From a virus (taxonomy: Duplodnaviria; Heunggongvirae; Uroviricota; Caudoviricetes), in IMG/VR virus record IMGVR_UViG_2734482548_000006: DNA of 4,514 bases. One strand, given 5' to 3'. Made by a program: the position numbers and the translations under genes. The notes beneath the pieces were generated by a model. The model had not been told where the DNA came from, searched no databases, and saw only the letters and a list, made by a program, of their open reading frames with translations. The first letter of the stretch is position 1, and every line of letters starts with the position of its first letter. This document shows, one piece after another, positions 48 to 4,514 of the stretch.

Positions 48-401
48 TTAAAAAAAGAACAAATGGTAGTGTCCGCTATTGCCAGTACACCTCAATTGCT
101 CTGCGGCTTCGCTCAGAGCTGGCGTATGTTCCCGGCCTACTGATTCACACAGGTAATCAACGAAACCGGACACCAGTTTTCGTTCGCGAGGCGTGATCGC
201 CCCACCGACCGGAGTCCAGTAATCGAAACCCAGTTGCAGGAGTTTGAAAAAACGCTTGTGGAATGCGTAGTTACACACACGCTTAAAGTCTGCGTGTATC
301 CACTCACCTATTTTGATTTGATGCAGAAAATCGCAACTCTCCGGCGTCGCCGGGAGAAGTAATCCGGAAGAGGTTTGTTTGACCAGTTGTATATGTGCCA
401 T
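48..401 (-). CDS. Hypothetical prophage protein, about 117 aa (MAHIQLVKQ...HYHLFFF)
   Basis: Minus-strand ORF with stop TAA at 48-50. ATG at 399-401 is preceded by GGAG about 7 nt upstream; the listed ORF extends to a TTG at 443, which is a less likely start. Follows the upstream 95-aa gene by 38 bp. No family recognised. Confidence 0.55.
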   Translation of the reverse strand: MAHIQLVKQTSSGLLLPATPESCDFLHQIKIGEWIHADFKRVCNYAFHKRFFKLLQLGFDYWTPVGGAITPRERKLVSGFVDYLCESVGREHTPALSEAAEQLRCTGNSGHYHLFFF

Positions 402-439
402 CGGCTTTCTCCGGTGGCACGGTGTTACACAGCAGGAGT

Positions 440-727
440 TCAATCCTGCTCAAGATTGTAGATGAGTTTATTCTTCAGCAAAAGCAGAAAACCAGCCTTA
501 AAACCAATCTCTTTCAAAACCCGTAATGATGTGACAAATTCGTCCTCACGCAAAATAAAACCGTCCGTCAGAAGTCCATTACAAAAATAAAATAACACAG
601 CACCGCTCTTCCTTTGTTGAGATTGCAAACATCTAATGCGGCAATGGCTGACAATCGCTCCATTCTCAACGCGCACAGCATAGAGGCCATTTTCACTAAA
701 AATTTCACGCAATTCTTCGATTTTCAT
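440..727 (-). CDS. Hypothetical prophage protein, 95 aa
   Basis: Minus-strand ORF with ATG at 725-727 and GGAAGG about 9 nt upstream; stop TGA at 440-442. AT-rich coding region. No family recognised. Confidence 0.55.
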   Translation of the reverse strand: MKIEELREIFSENGLYAVRVENGAIVSHCRIRCLQSQQRKSGAVLFYFCNGLLTDGFILREDEFVTSLRVLKEIGFKAGFLLLLKNKLIYNLEQD

Positions 728-844
728 CTTCAGAATCCTTCCAGATAAATAGCTCTCCCCTGTTCGGGGTCCATCCCTCTTCTCCCTGCGCGCTACTTAA
801 GTGAGTCGATTCTATCTGCGAAGGTGCGCGAATCAAATTCACCG

Positions 845-901
845 GAAATAAACAACAAAAAACCCGCCGAAACGCTGAGAGATCACAGCGATGGGCGGGT
901 T
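845..901 (-). terminator. Rho-independent terminator at the 3' end of the hok transcript
   Basis: Plus-strand aacccgcc (861-868) pairs with ggcgggtt (894-901), with an inner cgctg/cagcg stem (873-877 / 886-890). On the minus-strand RNA the stem is followed by a U-rich tract (complement of 845-860 gaaataaacaacaaaaaa). On the plus strand no T-tract follows, so it is unidirectional. Confidence 0.65.
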
Positions 902-907
902 AAGTGC

Positions 908-920
908 GGGTGCGTTGAGG
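908..920 (-). promoter_or_regulatory. fbi-like 3' element of hok mRNA, complementary to the 5' tac element
   Basis: Plus 908-920 gggtgcgttgagg is nearly identical to the reverse complement of plus 1289-1302 (agcctcaagcaccc), so the mRNA 3' region can pair with its 5' end with a 1-nt bulge. This is the fold-back architecture known from hok mRNAs. A 9-bp perfect hairpin (941-949 gggcgggga / 960-968 tccccgccc) lies between the hok stop and this element. Confidence 0.5.
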
Positions 921-976
921 ATGCCTGACACATCAGAGGTGGGCGGGGATGGGATCAGCTCCCCGCCCGGTCACTC

Positions 977-1132
977 TTACTTCCTGGATTCGTAGTCTAC
1001 GAAGACAGCGACCTCCGTCTGGCCGGTTCGGATTCGTACCTCACAGAGGTCTTTCCTCGTTACCAGTGCCGTCACTATGACGGTTAAACAGATGACGATC
1101 AGGGCGATTAACATCGCCTTTTGCTGCTTCAT
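977..1132 (-). CDS. hok: Hok/Gef family type I toxin, 51 aa (MKQQKAMLIALIVICLTVIVTALVTRKDLCEVRIRTGQTEVAVFVDYESRK)
   Basis: ATG at 1130-1132 with AAGGAG 9 nt upstream; stop at 977-979. Single transmembrane helix followed by the conserved RKDLCEV...TGQTEVAVF periplasmic tail, very close to E. coli HokC/HokD as recalled. Confidence 0.9.
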   Translation of the reverse strand: MKQQKAMLIALIVICLTVIVTALVTRKDLCEVRIRTGQTEVAVFVDYESRK

Positions 1133-1189
1133 AGCCTGCTTCTCCTTGCCTTTCGGCATGTAAGAGGCTAACCTACATGTGCAAAGCAT
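977..1189 (-). CDS. mok: Mok-like overlapping reading frame (70 aa), an in-frame N-terminal extension of hok
   Basis: ATG at 1187-1189 opens a frame that runs in-frame through hok (MLCTCRLASYMPKGKEKQA + Hok). Same layout and size as the mokC/hokC pair (69/50 aa) in E. coli. Confidence 0.55.
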   Translation of the reverse strand: MLCTCRLASYMPKGKEKQAMKQQKAMLIALIVICLTVIVTALVTRKDLCEVRIRTGQTEVAVFVDYESRK

Positions 1190-1262
1190 GAAATTGGCCT
1201 CAGATTAATGTTAAGCGTCTTGCCGGACGCGTAATGTTAACTGGGGCTTTTCTCTATCTGCC
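1181..1262 (+). ncRNA. sok: Putative Sok-like antisense RNA (position approximate)
   Basis: Family expectation: Hok loci carry a short antisense RNA opposite the mok leader. A candidate plus-strand promoter is TTGCCT (1146-1151), 17 nt spacer, TAACCT (1169-1174), and there is a small hairpin gcgtc/gacgc (1215-1230). No clean terminator was found, so the boundaries are a guess. Confidence 0.25.
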
Positions 1263-1288
1263 TTTTGGTGTTCATGCCTGAAGCAGAT

Positions 1289-1338
1289 AGCCTCAAGCAC
1301 CCGCAGTCATTCTACTTACCTCGCCAATATGAAATCAA
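1289..1338 (-). promoter_or_regulatory. hok/mok promoter and mRNA 5' tac element
   Basis: On the minus strand: -35 TTGATT (plus 1333-1338), 18 nt spacer, -10 TAGAAT (plus 1309-1314), predicted start near 1302. The transcript would begin GGGUGCUUGAGGCU (complement of 1289-1302), resembling the 5' end of plasmid R1 hok mRNA. Confidence 0.5.
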
Positions 1339-1359
1339 TCAGAAAGGTGCCCCATAAAA

Positions 1360-2046
1360 TCACTCCTTCTCTTCTTTACCGTAGTGGAGTTGACCAATTT
1401 TGATAAGAGGGCGTCCCTGAGATTTGCGGTGTAGATTGGTATCGCGCAGAGAATACACACAGCCACAATATTCCTGCTGATAGAATTTTTCGCGCTTGCT
1501 GATTTCAATCATACGGGACGAGCCGCCCTGCTTGCGCCAGTTATAATCCCAGTACACCATGCCCGGATAATGCGCGACGGCTCGCCGCCCACAGTCGTTA
1601 ACCTGCTGCATATTTTTCCAGCGTGAAATGCCCAGTGAACTGCTGATCACACTGAAACCATTTTCAGCGGCGTACAGCGCTGTCCGCTCAAAACGCATGT
1701 CAAAACACATGGTGCAACGGATCCCTCGTTCGGGCTCCCATTCCATTCCTTTGGCTCGTTCAAACCAGTTGTCTGTGTCGTAATCAGCATCAATAAACGG
1801 CACGCCGTGTTGTTCAGCAAAGCGAATATTCTCATCCTTACGAATTAAATACTCTTTCTGAGGATGAATGTTCGGGTTGTAGAAAAAGATGGTGTAGTCG
1901 ATTCCCGAGGCCTGAAGCGCCTCCATCACCTCACCGGAACATGGAGCACAGCAAGAGTGCAGTAGTAGTTTGTTTGCCCCGTTTGGGAGCTCCAATTTGG
2001 GCCGTTTGAAATCAGCAACTGTCATAAATATGTTTATTGGGGTCAT
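1360..2046 (-). CDS. queH: QueH-like protein (DUF208 family, epoxyqueuosine reductase homolog), 228 aa
   Basis: ORF with ATG at 2044-2046 (alternative ATG at 2025) and stop TGA at 1360-1362. Carries the motifs I associate with DUF208/QueH: [12 protein letters not shown] near the N-terminus, [15 protein letters not shown] and EYCGCVYS. No strong SD at either start. Confidence 0.75.
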
Positions 2047-2193
2047 AAAAATATCAAAGAGTGTAGCATTAGAACGGGGCTATCGGAAACAGATGTGTGA
2101 CTGCTCCCCGCCCTTTCGGGTGGTCTCCTGATGATTTGAGGGTGCAGAAATCCCTCCGGTTAAGGATTAAATTTTTAACAGTGCTAAATTTAA

Positions 2194-2550
2194 TTATTCA
2201 GTTCTGGATTTTGTCGCCCTGCGTATCCGCGCTTTCGCGTTACGCTCAATCTGTATCAGCTTTTCTATATTTCTCCGCCTTTCCTGTTCCTCCTGGCGCA
2301 ATAGCCTTACATCATCTGCCAGTCTGGTTTCTCTTTTTGCCACAGAGAGCATCCAGTCAAACGGCTCCACAACCGCACCGCAGATTTTACAGCGGACCTG
2401 ACGCTCTTTTTCGTCAACCCGTACAGAGGCGTGATGGCAATATGGTCTTTCCGATGGCTCATAAAGAAAATTAACCTGATTACGAGGGTCATCCTCTTTT
2501 ACCGGAAATAAAACGATATTGCTTAACTCATCTTCTGGTTTTATTTCCAT
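2194..2550 (-). CDS. Hypothetical small protein, 118 aa: Cys/His-rich Zn-ribbon-like segment followed by a charged coiled-coil-like tail
   Basis: ATG at 2548-2550 is preceded by AAGGAGAGGAGC. The ORF is open further to an ATG at 2605-2607, which abuts the upstream stop as TGAATG, so the start is ambiguous. Contains PYCHHASVRV...RCKICG, then RLLRQEEQERRRNIEKLIQIERNAKARIRR. Confidence 0.7.
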   Translation of the reverse strand: MEIKPEDELSNIVLFPVKEDDPRNQVNFLYEPSERPYCHHASVRVDEKERQVRCKICGAVVEPFDWMLSVAKRETRLADDVRLLRQEEQERRRNIEKLIQIERNAKARIRRATKSRTE

Positions 2551-2607
2551 GCTCCTCTCCTTTGATGCGAATGCCAGCGGTAATTGAAGCCTGATAGCTA
2601 ATTTCAT

Positions 2608-3030
2608 TCACAGTATCGCCTCCTGAAAATTACCCTGATAGAAAGCCAGTACACGCTGCATAGCTTCGCTCTTCCGGCACTCGCGACAGATTATATTCAG
2701 GCGCCTGTCGTAGCGGCGTATTTCTCCGTCAGGTAATGACCAGATAAGGTCCGGATCAACAACAACCGGTTTCCTCACCTTTACTCTCGAGAGTTTTTTG
2801 CGGGCGCTTTGCCAGTCCTTGCGAGCCTGTTCAGACGGGAATAAGCCGTAGCCAGAATTATATACATCACCACTTGCGACCAGTTCTATGCATAAGCGAC
2901 CGACAGACGCACGACTGATACCTGTTTCATCTGACAACTGCCGAATCGTGACCCGACCGTCCTGATGCACGAGTTCCACAATTCGCGTCTTCAGTTCTTC
3001 CCGCTGTTCGGGAGTAAAAGGTTTCGCCAT
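2608..3030 (-). CDS. ren: Ren-like protein, 140 aa, with predicted HTH/winged-helix N-terminal region
   Basis: ATG at 3028-3030 with AGGAGG 4 nt upstream; stop TGA at 2608-2610. C-terminus NIICRECRKSEAMQRVLAFY resembles lambda Ren (NLVFKECRQSAAMKRVLAVY, recalled from memory). Sits immediately after the P-like gene, as ren does in lambda. Confidence 0.7.
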   Translation of the reverse strand: MAKPFTPEQREELKTRIVELVHQDGRVTIRQLSDETGISRASVGRLCIELVASGDVYNSGYGLFPSEQARKDWQSARKKLSRVKVRKPVVVDPDLIWSLPDGEIRRYDRRLNIICRECRKSEAMQRVLAFYQGNFQEAIL

Positions 3031-3044
3031 AAATCCTCCTGAAA

Positions 3045-3727
3045 CTACTTAACAACCCTCGAATGGCTAACATTCGGACGCCAGCTCTCCCAGTTAAAAT
3101 TCACCCAGCGCCCGNNNNNNNNNNNNNNNNNNNNNNNNNNNNNNNNNNNNNNNNNNNNNNNNNNNNNNNNNNNNNNNNNNNNNNNNNNNNNNNNNNNNNN
3201 NNNNNNNNNNNNNNNNNNNNNNNNNNNNNNNNNNNNNNNNNNNNNNNNNNNNNNNNNNNNNNNNNNNNNNNNNNNNNNNNNNNNNNNNNNNNNNNNNNNN
3301 NNNNNNNNNNNNNNNNNNNNNNNNNNNNNNNNNNNNNNNNNNNNNNNNNNNNNNNNNNNNNNNNGATAGCTGCCGCTAAGTGATTCTTCCCGGTACCAGG
3401 TTTTCCGCTGAACGCAAAATTTGTACACCCGGTCATCAGTTCATCGGCGATGGATTTCGCCTGGCTTAACGCGTATCGCTGGCCGTCGTTCTGCACCTGG
3501 TAATTCGCAAACGAGCATTTACGGTGCAACGGCTGGATGCCTGAGCGATTCAGAATTTTTTCCACCCGCAACTGGCGATTCAGGCGGTTGATCTCCTCGC
3601 TACGTTTCTGGCCTTCAGCAAGTTGCCACTCGCGCCACTCCGCTACCGTTCTGAATGGGGCGGTTACATGTGGCGGGGTCAGTCGGCGGATGCGTTCCAG
3701 AACGCCGCCTGTCGCAATATTTTTCAT
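3045..3727 (-). CDS. DnaC-like replicative helicase loader (lambda P functional analog), interrupted by an assembly gap
   Basis: ATG at 3725-3727. The N-terminal 121 aa align closely with E. coli DnaC (MKNI..., SGIQPLHRKCSFANY, Walker A GKPGTGKNHLAAAI). After the N-run, the C-terminus WVNFNWESWRP...VVK with stop at 3045-3047 matches the DnaC C-terminus (WVIFNWDSYRSRV). The frame does not carry across the 250-N gap, so the gap length is nominal. Confidence 0.85.
3115..3364. other. Assembly/scaffold gap (250 N)
   Basis: Continuous run of N from 3115 to 3364, inside the DnaC-like gene. Confidence 0.99.
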
Positions 3728-3733
3728 GGTCCG

Positions 3734-4410
3734 TTACCCCCTGAAGCCTGGCGGGATCGCACTGTCCGGCAACGAGACGGTGTTAACCTGTCGGAGCAAC
3801 GTCTCAGGCCGAACACCTTTCGGCGCGAACAGGCCCTGGTATTCATTGGCGATGCTGTGTCGAATCACCTGCTCAGGTGTAAAACCCTGCTGACGGAATT
3901 TTTCCAGTTCCCGTATCGCCCCGTTAGCGCCCTGCTCCGTTCGAATCGGTTTTCGCAATGCCTGTCTGAACCGGACCCACTCATGCCAGAGTGTTTCCGG
4001 CAACCAATCGGGCAGCTCAATAGCCTCCGGCTCGAATTTTTTAGACGCTCGTTTTTGGCGAGGGGGAGATCAGTATTTAGATCTTCCTCTTCCTCTTCCT
4101 CTGGTAACGCTTTTTGATCCGTTTGTGTAACGCTGGCAGCGTTACCTTTTCGTTTCAGTTCGCGTATTTTTGTTACTCGCTCGTTTGTAACCGCCCGTTT
4201 TTTTTAGAGCTTTTTCCGTTATGACGTTCAAAGTTAGGTAGAGAAAGCCCTCCGTCATTTTCGACCAGCCATCCAACCTGAATTAACGCATCAGCAAAAC
4301 CAGACATAAAAGTGATGCGATCTATTGCACTTTTTGTAACGCCGCGAGCGTTACAATCTGCATTACCGTCTATCATTTGTTGATCCGCCCATGCCCAGAA
4401 GCGAATAACC
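3734..4410 (-). pseudogene. Phage replication initiator with DnaT-like C-terminal domain (lambda O functional analog): 5'-truncated by IS and split across three frames
   Basis: The C-terminal frame (4003-3734) ends NTVSLPDSAIPPGFRG, matching the E. coli DnaT C-terminus (NTVSEPDSQIPPGFRG, recalled), and stops 7 nt before the DnaC-like start, as in dnaT-dnaC. The N-terminal piece (frame of ORF 4173..4436) hits a stop at 4173. A third frame is open and protein-like between about 4203 and 4040 (KKRAVTNERVTKIRELKRKGNAASVTQTDQKALPEEEEEEDLNTDLPLAKNERLK). Restoring one base in the A8 run (plus T8 at 4198-4205) and one in a run at about 4037-4066 joins all three. Confidence 0.6.
4082..4102. repeat. 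Hexanucleotide tandem repeat (TCTTCC)x3.5, encoding an EEEEEE acidic linker in the replication protein
   Basis: Plus 4082-4102 is tcttcc tcttcc tcttcc tct; in the middle minus-strand frame it reads P-E-E-E-E-E-E-D. Confidence 0.5.
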
Positions 4411-4514
4411 TGAGGTAGCCTGAGTTTAACGGACACTCCTTCCTGAAATAGAATGGCATCAGAAGGAGCTAATAATGAGCAGAAAAACCCAACGTTACTC
4501 TAAAGAGTTCAAAG
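4411..4514 (+). mobile_element. Left end of an IS3-family insertion sequence (possibly IS600-like), continuing beyond the window
   Basis: Plus 4411 begins TGAGGTAGCCTGAGTTTAACGGACAC. This shares the terminal TGA and the GGACAC at positions 21-26 with the IS3 left inverted repeat as recalled. An SD (AGGAG, 4464-4468) and the ATG at 4475 lie about 65 bp inside the end, the usual position of orfA in IS3-family elements. Confidence 0.6.
4475..4514 (+). CDS. IS3-family transposase OrfA, N-terminal fragment (MSRKTQRYSKEFK...)
   Basis: ATG at 4475 with AGGAG 6 nt upstream. The translation MSRKTQRYSKEFK has the YS.EFK motif typical of IS3-family OrfA HTH proteins. Truncated by the window edge. Confidence 0.65.
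   Translation, partial: MSRKTQRYSKEFK

Follow-up and report, generated by a model that had tools for sequence, protein, structure and literature searches.

Our analysis of a 4,514-nucleotide stretch of viral DNA (IMG/VR record IMGVR_UViG_2734482548_000006; hereafter the window) indicates that two neighbouring minus-strand genes, one for a Ren-like protein of 140 aa and the other for a putative zinc-ribbon protein of 118 aa, are very probably independent of each other, being accessory genes in the early-right operon of a Rac/lambda-like prophage, and do not form a unit. They would lie next to each other here because of mosaic recombination.

By sequence homology, both genes belong to a prophage remnant of 4.3 kb with IS3-family elements on either side. 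Only positions 95-4411 of the window are homologous to the intact prophage, and the ends of an IS3-family orfB and orfA are found at 1-51 and 4475-4514. The remnant lacks cro, cI and pR, the native promoter, so that expression of both genes in the present genome is doubtful. Judged by their family matches, among them the match of the second gene product to PHROG 1621 (5e-56; 3e-56 for the 118-aa protein, over its whole length), both are real genes and not chance ORFs. The features of the interval, all on the minus strand, are the following:

3045..3727, minus strand: ydaV/DnaC-like helicase-loader gene (PHROG 50, 4.3e-30; bases 3115-3364 are masked as N)
2608..3030, minus strand: CDS of the DUF977/YdaW-type Ren homologue, 140 aa plus stop (Pfam, PHROG, BLASTP, hhalign, AF2)
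2605..2610, minus strand: TGAATG, the DUF977 stop followed by an in-frame ATG that adds 19 codons to the next ORF; not a functional start
2551..2607, minus strand: intergenic spacer of 57 nt, with the cassette boundary about 30 nt upstream of the start
2557-2562, minus strand: Shine-Dalgarno sequence AAGGAG, 6 nt before the ATG at 2550
2194..2550, minus strand: CDS of the PHROG 1621 zinc-ribbon/long basic helix protein, 118 aa plus stop (PHROG, PGAP, family alignments)
2446..2550, minus strand: acidic tail, residues 1-35, with a net charge of -5.5, predicted to be disordered (pLDDT ~50)
2365..2445, minus strand: putative zinc knuckle, residues 36-62, C-x-H...C-x2-C
2437-2439, 2431-2433, 2389-2391 and 2380-2382, minus strand: codons of the putative ligands C38, H40, C54 and C57, respectively
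2200..2364, minus strand: DPFD motif, then one continuous helix, residues 63-117 (AF2)

By its sequence, the 140-aa product represents a full-length Ren homologue of DUF977/YdaW type, and its gene occupies the canonical slot right after the replication genes. The gene starts 14 nt past the stop of the ydaV/DnaC-like gene, which PGAP names 'ydaV ATP-binding protein' at the 99.9% identical locus L001. We observed a full-length match to Pfam DUF977 (1.1e-33; 116.5 bits, exceeding the gathering threshold of 22.1 bits) and a match to PHROG 142, 'Ren-like exclusion protein' (2.7e-44), with residues 1-139 on profile positions 1-115/116. The protein is laid out as a winged helix (residues 1-83), a low-confidence linker of about 30 residues and, at residues 112-131, the C-terminal motif of Ren, NIICRECRKSEAMQRVLAFY. 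Matched by HTH_24 (7e-06) and IclR-type HTH models, the N-terminus is modelled by AF2 as a confident winged helix at 1-83 (pLDDT >90), and confidence is low at 84-140. With this model, Foldseek retrieved MarR/IclR winged helices only, which are generic matches. Borderline PDB sequence matches (E~0.09) raised a Z-alpha domain identity, which the Foldseek fold search did not support and which we rejected. PGAP labels the product 'DUF977 family protein', and phage records refer to it as 'putative YdaW family protein' or as 'LygF', a name used in some phage records and also in some from Salmonella. The lyg genes do no more than mark a Salmonella difference region (PMC4490851).

Lambda Ren (NP_040633) itself matches PHROG 142 (1.6e-41), the PHROG that the 140-aa protein likewise matches over nearly the whole profile. 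Like the 140-aa gene, lambda ren immediately follows the replication genes of the pR operon, where it overlaps the end of P. Both proteins have an N-terminal HTH-type region and have in common the C-terminal motif N-(I/L)-x-x-x-E-C-R-x-S-x-A-M-x-R-V-L-A-x-Y. BLASTP aligns the C-terminus of the 140-aa protein with lambda Ren 73-92 at 12/20 identical (60%) and 17/20 similar residues, and hhalign gives a probability of 88% across 23 columns. The pairwise similarity is confined to about 23 residues. Compared with lambda Ren (96 aa), the 140-aa protein carries an additional stretch of about 45 residues that separates the winged helix from the C-terminal motif; lambda Ren, for its part, has no Pfam DUF977 match at E<=0.1. 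The initial annotation had described a Ren-like C-terminus in a protein longer than lambda Ren with an HTH-like N-terminus, and both points hold.

Ren function is known only from genetics. By analogy with lambda Ren, the 140-aa protein probably acts at the replication or anti-exclusion interface. Within the DUF977 branch the HTH region is variable and the C-terminal half near-invariant, a pattern that could guide Ren-type experiments. The gene order ydaU-like, ydaV, DUF977 is identical in the window and in Rac-type prophages; the ydaW gene of K-12 is presumably a truncated remnant.

The minus-strand ORFs run from 3030 to 2608 (140 aa) and from 2607 to 2194 (137 aa), and the plus strand reads CATTCA at 2605-2610, which gives TGAATG on the minus strand. 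From this sequence the initial annotation had deduced a stop abutting a start and a coupled, co-transcribed pair. The abutting TGAATG is present in the window but is not conserved: most other DUF977 contexts have GTG or GTA as the codon at 2607, the non-DUF977 contexts have in-frame stops upstream of the zinc-ribbon gene start, and the 19 extra N-terminal codons are missing from the family alignment. All genomic contexts have GCTGGCATTCGCATCAAAGGAGAGGAGC-ATG in common, and the sequences diverge upstream of GCTGGCATTCGCATCAAAGGAGAGGAGC. PGAP annotates the gene as a 357-nt CDS. Since the family alignment, the PGAP annotation and the cassette boundary all agree, sequence comparison places the start at ATG 2550-2548, giving 118 aa, and not at 2607. 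With the real start 57 nt downstream and preceded by its own Shine-Dalgarno sequence, translational coupling is not upheld. Its appearance is explained by the spacer being in frame, 19 stop-free codons having a chance probability of ~0.4 by our estimate.

We also found in-frame DUF977::zinc-ribbon fusions of 278 aa, in which the stop is replaced by W (P0256) or by R (P0261). With a spacer that is in frame by chance, a point mutation is enough to create such a fusion. Programmed UGA read-through was considered as a source of the fusion and is unsupported, as the fusions seen carry sense-codon substitutions. The minus strand of the 57-nt gap showed no promoter-like or terminator-like site, which makes co-transcription of the two genes plausible. 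The 147-nt gap after the zinc-ribbon gene contains no Rfam family and no unusually stable fold (z=-0.85).

The 118-aa protein is a typical member of PHROG 1621, from which it shows no differences. A profile search gave 1,491 cluster representatives of the family at E<=1e-3. All 71 distant relatives (71/71) match PHROG 1621, and 70 of them also match PHROGs 4865 and 8538; an IMG/VR search with a smaller alignment of distant relatives yielded no confirmed loci. The initial annotation could place the protein in no family, and this agrees with our searches: there was no match in Pfam, NCBIfam, PADLOC 2.0 or PDB sequence searches, and PHROG 1621 is listed as function unknown. The family as a whole is not represented by any Pfam, NCBIfam or PADLOC model or by a solved structure, and our literature search found no study of it. 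Searching the PDB with the 71-sequence profile returned coiled-coil noise only (E>=0.02). When the AF2 model, a monomer model with a pTM of only 0.36, was compared with PDB and BFVD in Foldseek, no match fell below E=0.1, and the best one was a generic TFIIB ribbon.

Each of the three parts of the protein has conserved features. The acidic tail carries the motif ExELxNVVxFP, of which E6, E8, F15 and P16 do not vary among close family members; in distant relatives it shrinks to two hydrophobic residues, any residue and F-P. Judged by eye, the beta-clamp consensus QL[SD]LF does not fit this motif. In the putative zinc knuckle, C38, C54 and C57 never vary among the 71 distant members and H40 is kept in 94% of them, consistent with the C-H-H...C-x2-C cluster and Arg/Glu-rich helix that had been noticed before; AF2 predicts a beta hairpin there, with strands at 43-46 and 51-54. 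The predicted helix (63-117) reaches a pLDDT of 90-96 at residues 81-110, has a leucine heptad at 84/91/98 and ends in a conserved basic tip, E102-x-N104-x-K106-x-R108-I-R-R (ERNxKARIRR), the last 28 residues having a net charge of +7.8. As a bZIP basic region the tip is, by eye, a poor fit, with the basic part on the wrong side of the zipper.

Given a Ren-like gene followed by this zinc-ribbon gene, the initial annotation had proposed a plausible superinfection-exclusion or anti-defence module at the ren position. On this reading the pair would have co-evolved and would act jointly, e.g. in the escape from Rex-like or retron-type abortive infection. Of the 1,679 E. coli genomes with the zinc-ribbon gene, 975 indeed have an intact junction, and DUF977 is directly upstream in 42/80 near-identical IMG/VR loci, where the downstream neighbours vary. 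Furthermore, the 57-nt spacer is constant even with a DUF977 partner that is only 55-80% identical; this constancy and the common adjacency in E. coli and Shigella make selection for the arrangement possible. The 278-aa fusions also speak for a module, as do two preprints, one in which Rac YdaW (DUF977) is listed as blocking the retron-Sen2 toxin RcaT, a screen hit and the only functional hint for DUF977/YdaW (bioRxiv 10.1101/2020.06.22.160242), the other describing a lambda Ren-Rex protein interaction in a two-hybrid assay (bioRxiv 10.1101/2021.04.19.439022). Against it, the fusions require no more than a point mutation, and the zinc-ribbon gene is, on its sequence, a self-contained cassette with its own Shine-Dalgarno sequence and 118-aa ORF and a boundary 30 nt upstream of its start. 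The gene is also found without DUF977, behind Ea22-like or other genes in E. coli and at the nin-to-Q position. Conversely, E. coli genomes with the DUF977 3'-end sequence by far outnumber those with the intact junction, and other genes, such as a DUF1627 gene, often take the place behind DUF977. No DUF977 adjacency was seen in any non-Escherichia/Shigella relative or context examined: in Klebsiella, Serratia, Erwinia, Pantoea, Photorhabdus and Kluyvera the gene lies between a nuclease gene (NinG, RusA, YbcO) and Q, these copies often overlapping the upstream stop codon by ATGA, and distant members of the family lie within arrays of small early genes. The two genes thus do not co-occur in related prophages. 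Cassette independence and variable neighbours leave the module unsupported, and a joint function of this kind appears highly improbable to us. A role in defence found no backing either: no evidence from PADLOC 2.0 ties either protein to a known defence system, the 140-aa protein giving weak generic winged-helix matches only (E>=0.0017).

The neighbours of the cassette suggest two further readings. In one, the 118-aa protein is a detachable effector of Ea22-type lysis-lysogeny modulators, either free-standing or fused as a variable C-terminal domain, and its adjacency to DUF977 is incidental. In phage ArgO145 the gene begins within or right behind an Ea22-like gene, and a paralogue (~31% identity) is found in the same Ea22 context in 933W and Tyrion. 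Clean in-frame fusions of an Ea22 N-terminal domain to the whole protein (...AELEAR-EIKPEDE...) also occur (P0007, P0121, P0266 and P0269) and involve at least two Ea22 N-terminal variants, and a repertoire of different C-terminal domains has been described for Ea22 proteins (PMC7093339). However, many family members in nin-to-Q and DUF977 contexts have no Ea22 neighbour, and the short identity at the fusion junction (REI/MEI) could merely promote recombination; we regard this reading as unlikely. The other reading, a transcription factor that contacts RNA polymerase (TFIIB-like ribbon or DksA/TraR-like) and modulates or assists Q-dependent late transcription, is less probable still. It draws on at least 9 independent non-E. 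coli contexts, involving three Q families (PF06323, PF06530 and PF03589), where the gene directly precedes Q or is separated from it by one gene, and on the TFIIB N-terminal ribbon being the best, sub-threshold, match in both sequence and fold. The TFIIB ribbon (PF08271) and DksA/TraR fingers (e.g. lambda Orf73) do have a small beta-hairpin zinc knuckle like that of the 118-aa protein, but PF08271 scored 21.1-21.5 bits, below the 29-bit gathering cut-off, and the Foldseek match to 1pft (TFIIB ribbon) had E=0.12 over only 27 columns. The DksA/TraR family (PF01258, zf-dskA_traR) gave no Pfam match at E<=0.1. Its domain order differs as well, with a C4 finger between two helices, whereas the 118-aa protein has putative CHCC ligands and a knuckle before a single helix and lacks the DxxDxA acidic tip. 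In addition, the E. coli gene is far from Q, and the last nin-region slot is a general insertion point for accessory genes.

Compared with known nin-region genes (lambda NinG/NinH; DLP12 ybcO-rusA-ylcG-quuD), the zinc-ribbon gene is located outside Escherichia between NinG/RusA/YbcO and YlcG/Q; in the window it is at the proximal end of the nin region, beside ren. Placement in a nin family with an unrelated role had been named in the initial annotation as counting against its proposal, and this holds in part: the gene is a nin-region gene by its location, but Pfam and PHROGs revealed no homology to the named Nin proteins.

We favour two independent accessory genes, with a zinc-ribbon cassette that would reassort among early-operon slots, either after DUF977, after an Ea22-like gene or between a nin nuclease gene and Q. 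The model and the conserved residues suggest how its product may work. The helix of about 55 residues may dimerise as a coiled coil, and the conserved basic tip ERNxKARIRR and the zinc knuckle would bind nucleic acid. The acidic disordered tail, with its short docking-type motif, could dock onto a host or phage protein, and the protein would act early in lytic growth. We put forward this joint mechanism tentatively, giving it somewhat less than an even chance. A broader version, in which PHROG 1621 would be a widespread early effector class of zinc-knuckle, coiled-coil proteins whose basic tip acts on a conserved nucleic-acid or protein machine of the host, which exists free-standing or as an Ea22 C-terminal domain, and which was recruited beside Ren in E. 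coli against abortive infection, seems to us rather improbable.

The interval consists of ordinary lambdoid accessory genes that thousands of E. coli and Shigella genomes already carry, and it has little direct consequence; existing annotations of the pair read 'DUF977 family protein' and 'hypothetical protein'. The analysis corrects the start of the zinc-ribbon ORF and traces the apparent stop/start coupling to an in-frame spacer. It also delineates a large, uncharacterised family of phage proteins whose basic helix is sharply conserved and which is repeatedly linked to Ea22-like genes and to the nin-to-Q position; the family is a reasonable target for focused functional study. As a side observation, phage 933W carries a TraR homologue two genes upstream of the zinc-ribbon paralogue.

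The window contains a prophage remnant of 4.3 kb flanked by two IS copies, since homology to the intact prophage is confined to 95–4411 and IS3-family ends, in the same orientation, lie outside it (1–94 and 4412–4514). Positions 1–51 hold the final 16 codons of an orfB, with the C-terminus NISPAAFREKYHQMAA followed by the stop, and 4475–4514 the initial 13 codons of an orfA starting MSRKTQRYSKEFK; full-length orfB and orfA proteins at a Shigella flexneri locus (L086) match the rve and HTH_Tnp_1 models. Positions 95–3114 share 99.9% identity with a Rac/lambda-type prophage of E. coli FDAARGOS_944 that looks intact and in which PGAP labels the genes “ydaV”, “DUF977 family protein”, “hypothetical protein” (357 nt) and “QueH”. 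Every gene of interest lies on the minus strand.

Features of the window
4436..4173 and 4003..3734, minus: O-like replication gene, two ORFs (PHROGs 2509, 6451, 678)
3727..3045, minus: ydaV, DnaC-like (bases 3115–3364 are an N mask)
3030..2608, minus: 140-aa Ren-like ORF (DUF977, PHROG 142)
2607..2194, minus: zinc-ribbon ORF as first called (PHROG 1621)
2046..1360, minus: QueH, epoxyqueuosine reductase (Pfam 1.9e-65; PHROG 3217, function unknown)
977–1302, minus: hok/sok locus (Hok_Gef ORF 1189..977, 9.8e-23; Rfam sok 1127–1302, 117 bits)
After hok/sok in transcription order, minus: 95-aa gene (PHROG 340)
Last in transcription order, minus: DUF1367/NinB-like gene, truncated

The remnant lacks cro, cI and pR, and its DUF1367 gene is cut short. 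The O-like gene (3734–4436) has lost around 35 N-terminal codons at the IS junction and consists of 87- and 89-aa ORFs versus a single 262-aa CDS in FDAARGOS_944, with 2 gap openings in the alignment; it is probably a pseudogene. The Ren-like and zinc-ribbon genes are intact, while their native expression signal is gone. In the middle of ydaV, the 250 N at 3115–3364 stand against 314 nt in the near-identical locus L001, so the mask length is mismatched.

Both ORFs are real genes, matching DUF977 (1.1e-33) and PHROG 142 (2.7e-44) for the first and PHROG 1621 (5e-56) for the second. The features described in the initial annotation are all present: both ORFs have the stated coordinates and meet at TGAATG, the first protein has a Ren-like C-terminus behind a longer HTH-type N-terminus, and the second has the C-H-H...C-x2-C cluster and Arg/Glu-rich helix. 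However, the abutting stop and start are not the real junction, as four agreeing lines of evidence place the zinc-ribbon start downstream. Homologues from Escherichia, Klebsiella, Kluyvera, Serratia, Erwinia, Salmonella and Yokenella all start at the equivalent of M20 of the 137-aa ORF, the resulting 118-aa form is the PGAP call, a Shine-Dalgarno-type AAGGAG lies 6 nt 5′ of the ATG at 2550, and the sequence shared by 80 near-identical IMG/VR loci begins just ~30 nt 5′ of this ATG. A 57-nt spacer therefore parts the genes, and the zinc-ribbon gene has its own ribosome-binding site. In the IMG/VR loci, codon 2607 is GTG or GTA, not ATG, in most DUF977 contexts, and contexts without DUF977 carry in-frame stop codons further upstream of the ATG. 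Co-transcription of the two genes is still likely, because a search of the minus strand of the spacer found no promoter-like or terminator-like site.

The Ren-like identity of the 140-aa protein was correctly recognized: lambda Ren and this protein each match PHROG 142 along nearly the whole profile, although their pairwise similarity does not extend beyond the C-terminal motif (BLASTP, 12 of 20 residues identical; hhalign, 88% probability over 23 columns). Lambda Ren itself gave no match to Pfam DUF977 at E ≤ 1e-1. AF2 predicts a confident winged helix for residues 1–83 and a low-confidence C-terminal part, and Foldseek with this model returned only generic MarR/IclR-type winged helices. Aligned DUF977 alleles form groups whose differences lie chiefly in the HTH region (residues ~12–50), with near invariance at 54–135, which would reflect either a recombination breakpoint within the gene or an N-terminal domain tracking the upstream replication module. 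Functional hints come from the literature only: Rac YdaW is among the listed blockers of the retron-Sen2 toxin RcaT (bioRxiv 10.1101/2020.06.22.160242), and lambda Ren interacted with Rex proteins in a two-hybrid assay whose authors regard a part for Ren in replication as likely (bioRxiv 10.1101/2021.04.19.439022). Two Erwinia prophages (L091 2486–2791 and L095 3933–4175) carry short winged-helix ORFs of 101 and 80 aa, 1–2 kb upstream of the zinc-ribbon gene; their C-terminal FGVS..SEFQRL(I/V) segment is Ren-like by eye only, and neither matches PHROG 142 at E ≤ 1e-3.

The description of the second protein as uncharacterised proved right, with no match in NCBIfam, PADLOC or PDB sequence searches and, in Pfam, a single match below threshold, the TFIIB ribbon at 21 bits (cut-off 29 bits). 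Searching 1.84 billion cluster representatives with a profile returned 1,491 relatives at E ≤ 1e-3 (224 at E ≤ 1e-10); those among the matches listed are all small proteins, most of ~100–190 aa. All 71 distant members examined match PHROG 1621 and 70 also match PHROGs 4865 and 8538. The function of all three PHROGs is unknown, and these 71 members fall in no Pfam family. Family-wide conservation comprises C38, H40, R50, C54, C57 and a D62-P-F-D65 motif, followed in the helix by leucines 84, 91 and 98 at heptad spacing and by E102, N104, K106 and R108. In the AF2 model (pLDDT 71.8), the N-terminal 35 residues are disordered, the knuckle forms a β-hairpin and a single helix spans residues 63–117, with pLDDT >90 at 81–110. 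Net charge is −5.5 in the N-tail and +7.8 over the last 28 residues. Fold searches of the PDB and BFVD gave nothing below E = 0.1.

We observed that the genomic context speaks against a Ren-like/zinc-ribbon pair. Among the 80 IMG/VR loci (zinc-ribbon gene 97–100% identical), DUF977 is directly upstream in 42 and within ~0.65–1.3 kb in many others; the adjoining DUF977 protein is 55% to 100% identical to that of the window, and the downstream genes differ. Of 5,426 complete E. coli genomes, 1,679 carry the zinc-ribbon gene, which has 2,135 places in all, and 975 have the intact junction. Some part of the junction query is matched in 3,830 genomes, with most partial matches of an evenly spaced row sample falling under DUF977 genes, and a DUF1627 gene often takes the slot 3′ of DUF977 in place of the zinc-ribbon gene. 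Stx phage ArgO145 has the zinc-ribbon gene in its early-left operon, where it and an Ea22-like gene overlap. No adjacent DUF977 was found in the Klebsiella, Serratia, Erwinia, Pantoea, Photorhabdus and Kluyvera prophages examined; there, a NinG, RusA, YbcO or DUF968/HNH gene precedes the zinc-ribbon gene, which is often joined to this nuclease-type gene by an ATGA overlap, and antiterminator Q, of three different families, follows directly or one gene downstream. More distant members belong to arrays made up of small early genes, with PAPS-reductase and methyltransferase genes nearby in some cases. Because contexts vary in this way across loci and genera, the zinc-ribbon gene is a mobile early-operon cassette, which in Escherichia and Shigella often, but only facultatively, adjoins the Ren homologue.

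Natural fusions are of two kinds. Among the 278-aa DUF977::zinc-ribbon proteins, the two sequences inspected, P0256 and P0261, have a sense codon (for W and R, respectively) instead of the TGA stop; this fusion is possible only because the spacer is in frame and stop-free, a state for which we estimate a somewhat less than even likelihood of chance origin. In the other kind, an Ead/Ea22 N-terminal domain and coiled coil are followed in frame by the entire zinc-ribbon protein through a clean join (...AELEAR-EIKPEDE...), with at least 2 different Ea22 N-terminal variants. These fusions fit the published account of interchangeable C-terminal domains in Ea22 proteins (PMC7093339), making Ea22 a more interesting candidate partner than DUF977. 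A paralogous subfamily (~31% identity) occupies the place that the zinc-ribbon gene has in ArgO145, by an Ea22-like gene, in 933W, VT2-Sakai, Stx2 II and Enterobacter phage Tyrion.

The Ea22 fusion proteins (P0007, P0121, P0266 and P0269) come from E. coli and E. marmotae, while in ArgO145 (L003 6362–7730) the two genes are separate with a 23-nt overlap. The paralogous subfamily is also present in Min27 and many other Stx phages. The 933W paralogue (ST933Wp77, L108 2370–2762, 131 aa, ~31% identical to the window protein) lies directly 3′ of the Ea22-like gene, and a DksA/TraR-like zinc finger is encoded two genes upstream of the paralogue.

The initial annotation was partly confirmed. The Ren-like/zinc-ribbon arrangement is an ordinary mosaic of catalogued families. 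Its coupling into a superinfection-exclusion or anti-defence module is unsupported, the junction being present in 975 of the 1,679 E. coli genomes with the zinc-ribbon gene and other contexts lacking DUF977. The least supported reading of the zinc-ribbon protein is that it and the Ren homologue form a dedicated two-gene module against exclusion, to which the Rex interaction of lambda Ren would be relevant. Two rival readings are a possible role in transcription or with RNA polymerase tied to Q, its close neighbor in the prophages of the six genera above, and a possible Ea22-linked role in the lysis–lysogeny decision. We tentatively regard the protein as a nucleic-acid-binding dimer, though we hold this to be rather less probable than not. 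The long helix with its heptad leucines would form a dimeric coiled coil, the conserved basic tip and zinc knuckle would bind nucleic acid, and the acidic tail, through a conserved hydrophobic-hydrophobic-x-F-P motif, may dock onto a partner protein, with action presumably early in lytic growth. The only lead that merits pursuit is the PHROG 1621 family, which is large and sharply conserved, with its link to Ea22-like proteins.

QueH, a prophage-borne gene between the zinc-ribbon gene and hokD, comes after the former in no more than 12 of the 80 related viral loci, and just 2 of the 5,426 complete E. coli genomes have the full arrangement. The hok/sok-type toxin–antitoxin locus of the window is complete; in 933W, too, a hok locus (hokW/sokW) closely follows the paralogous zinc-ribbon gene.
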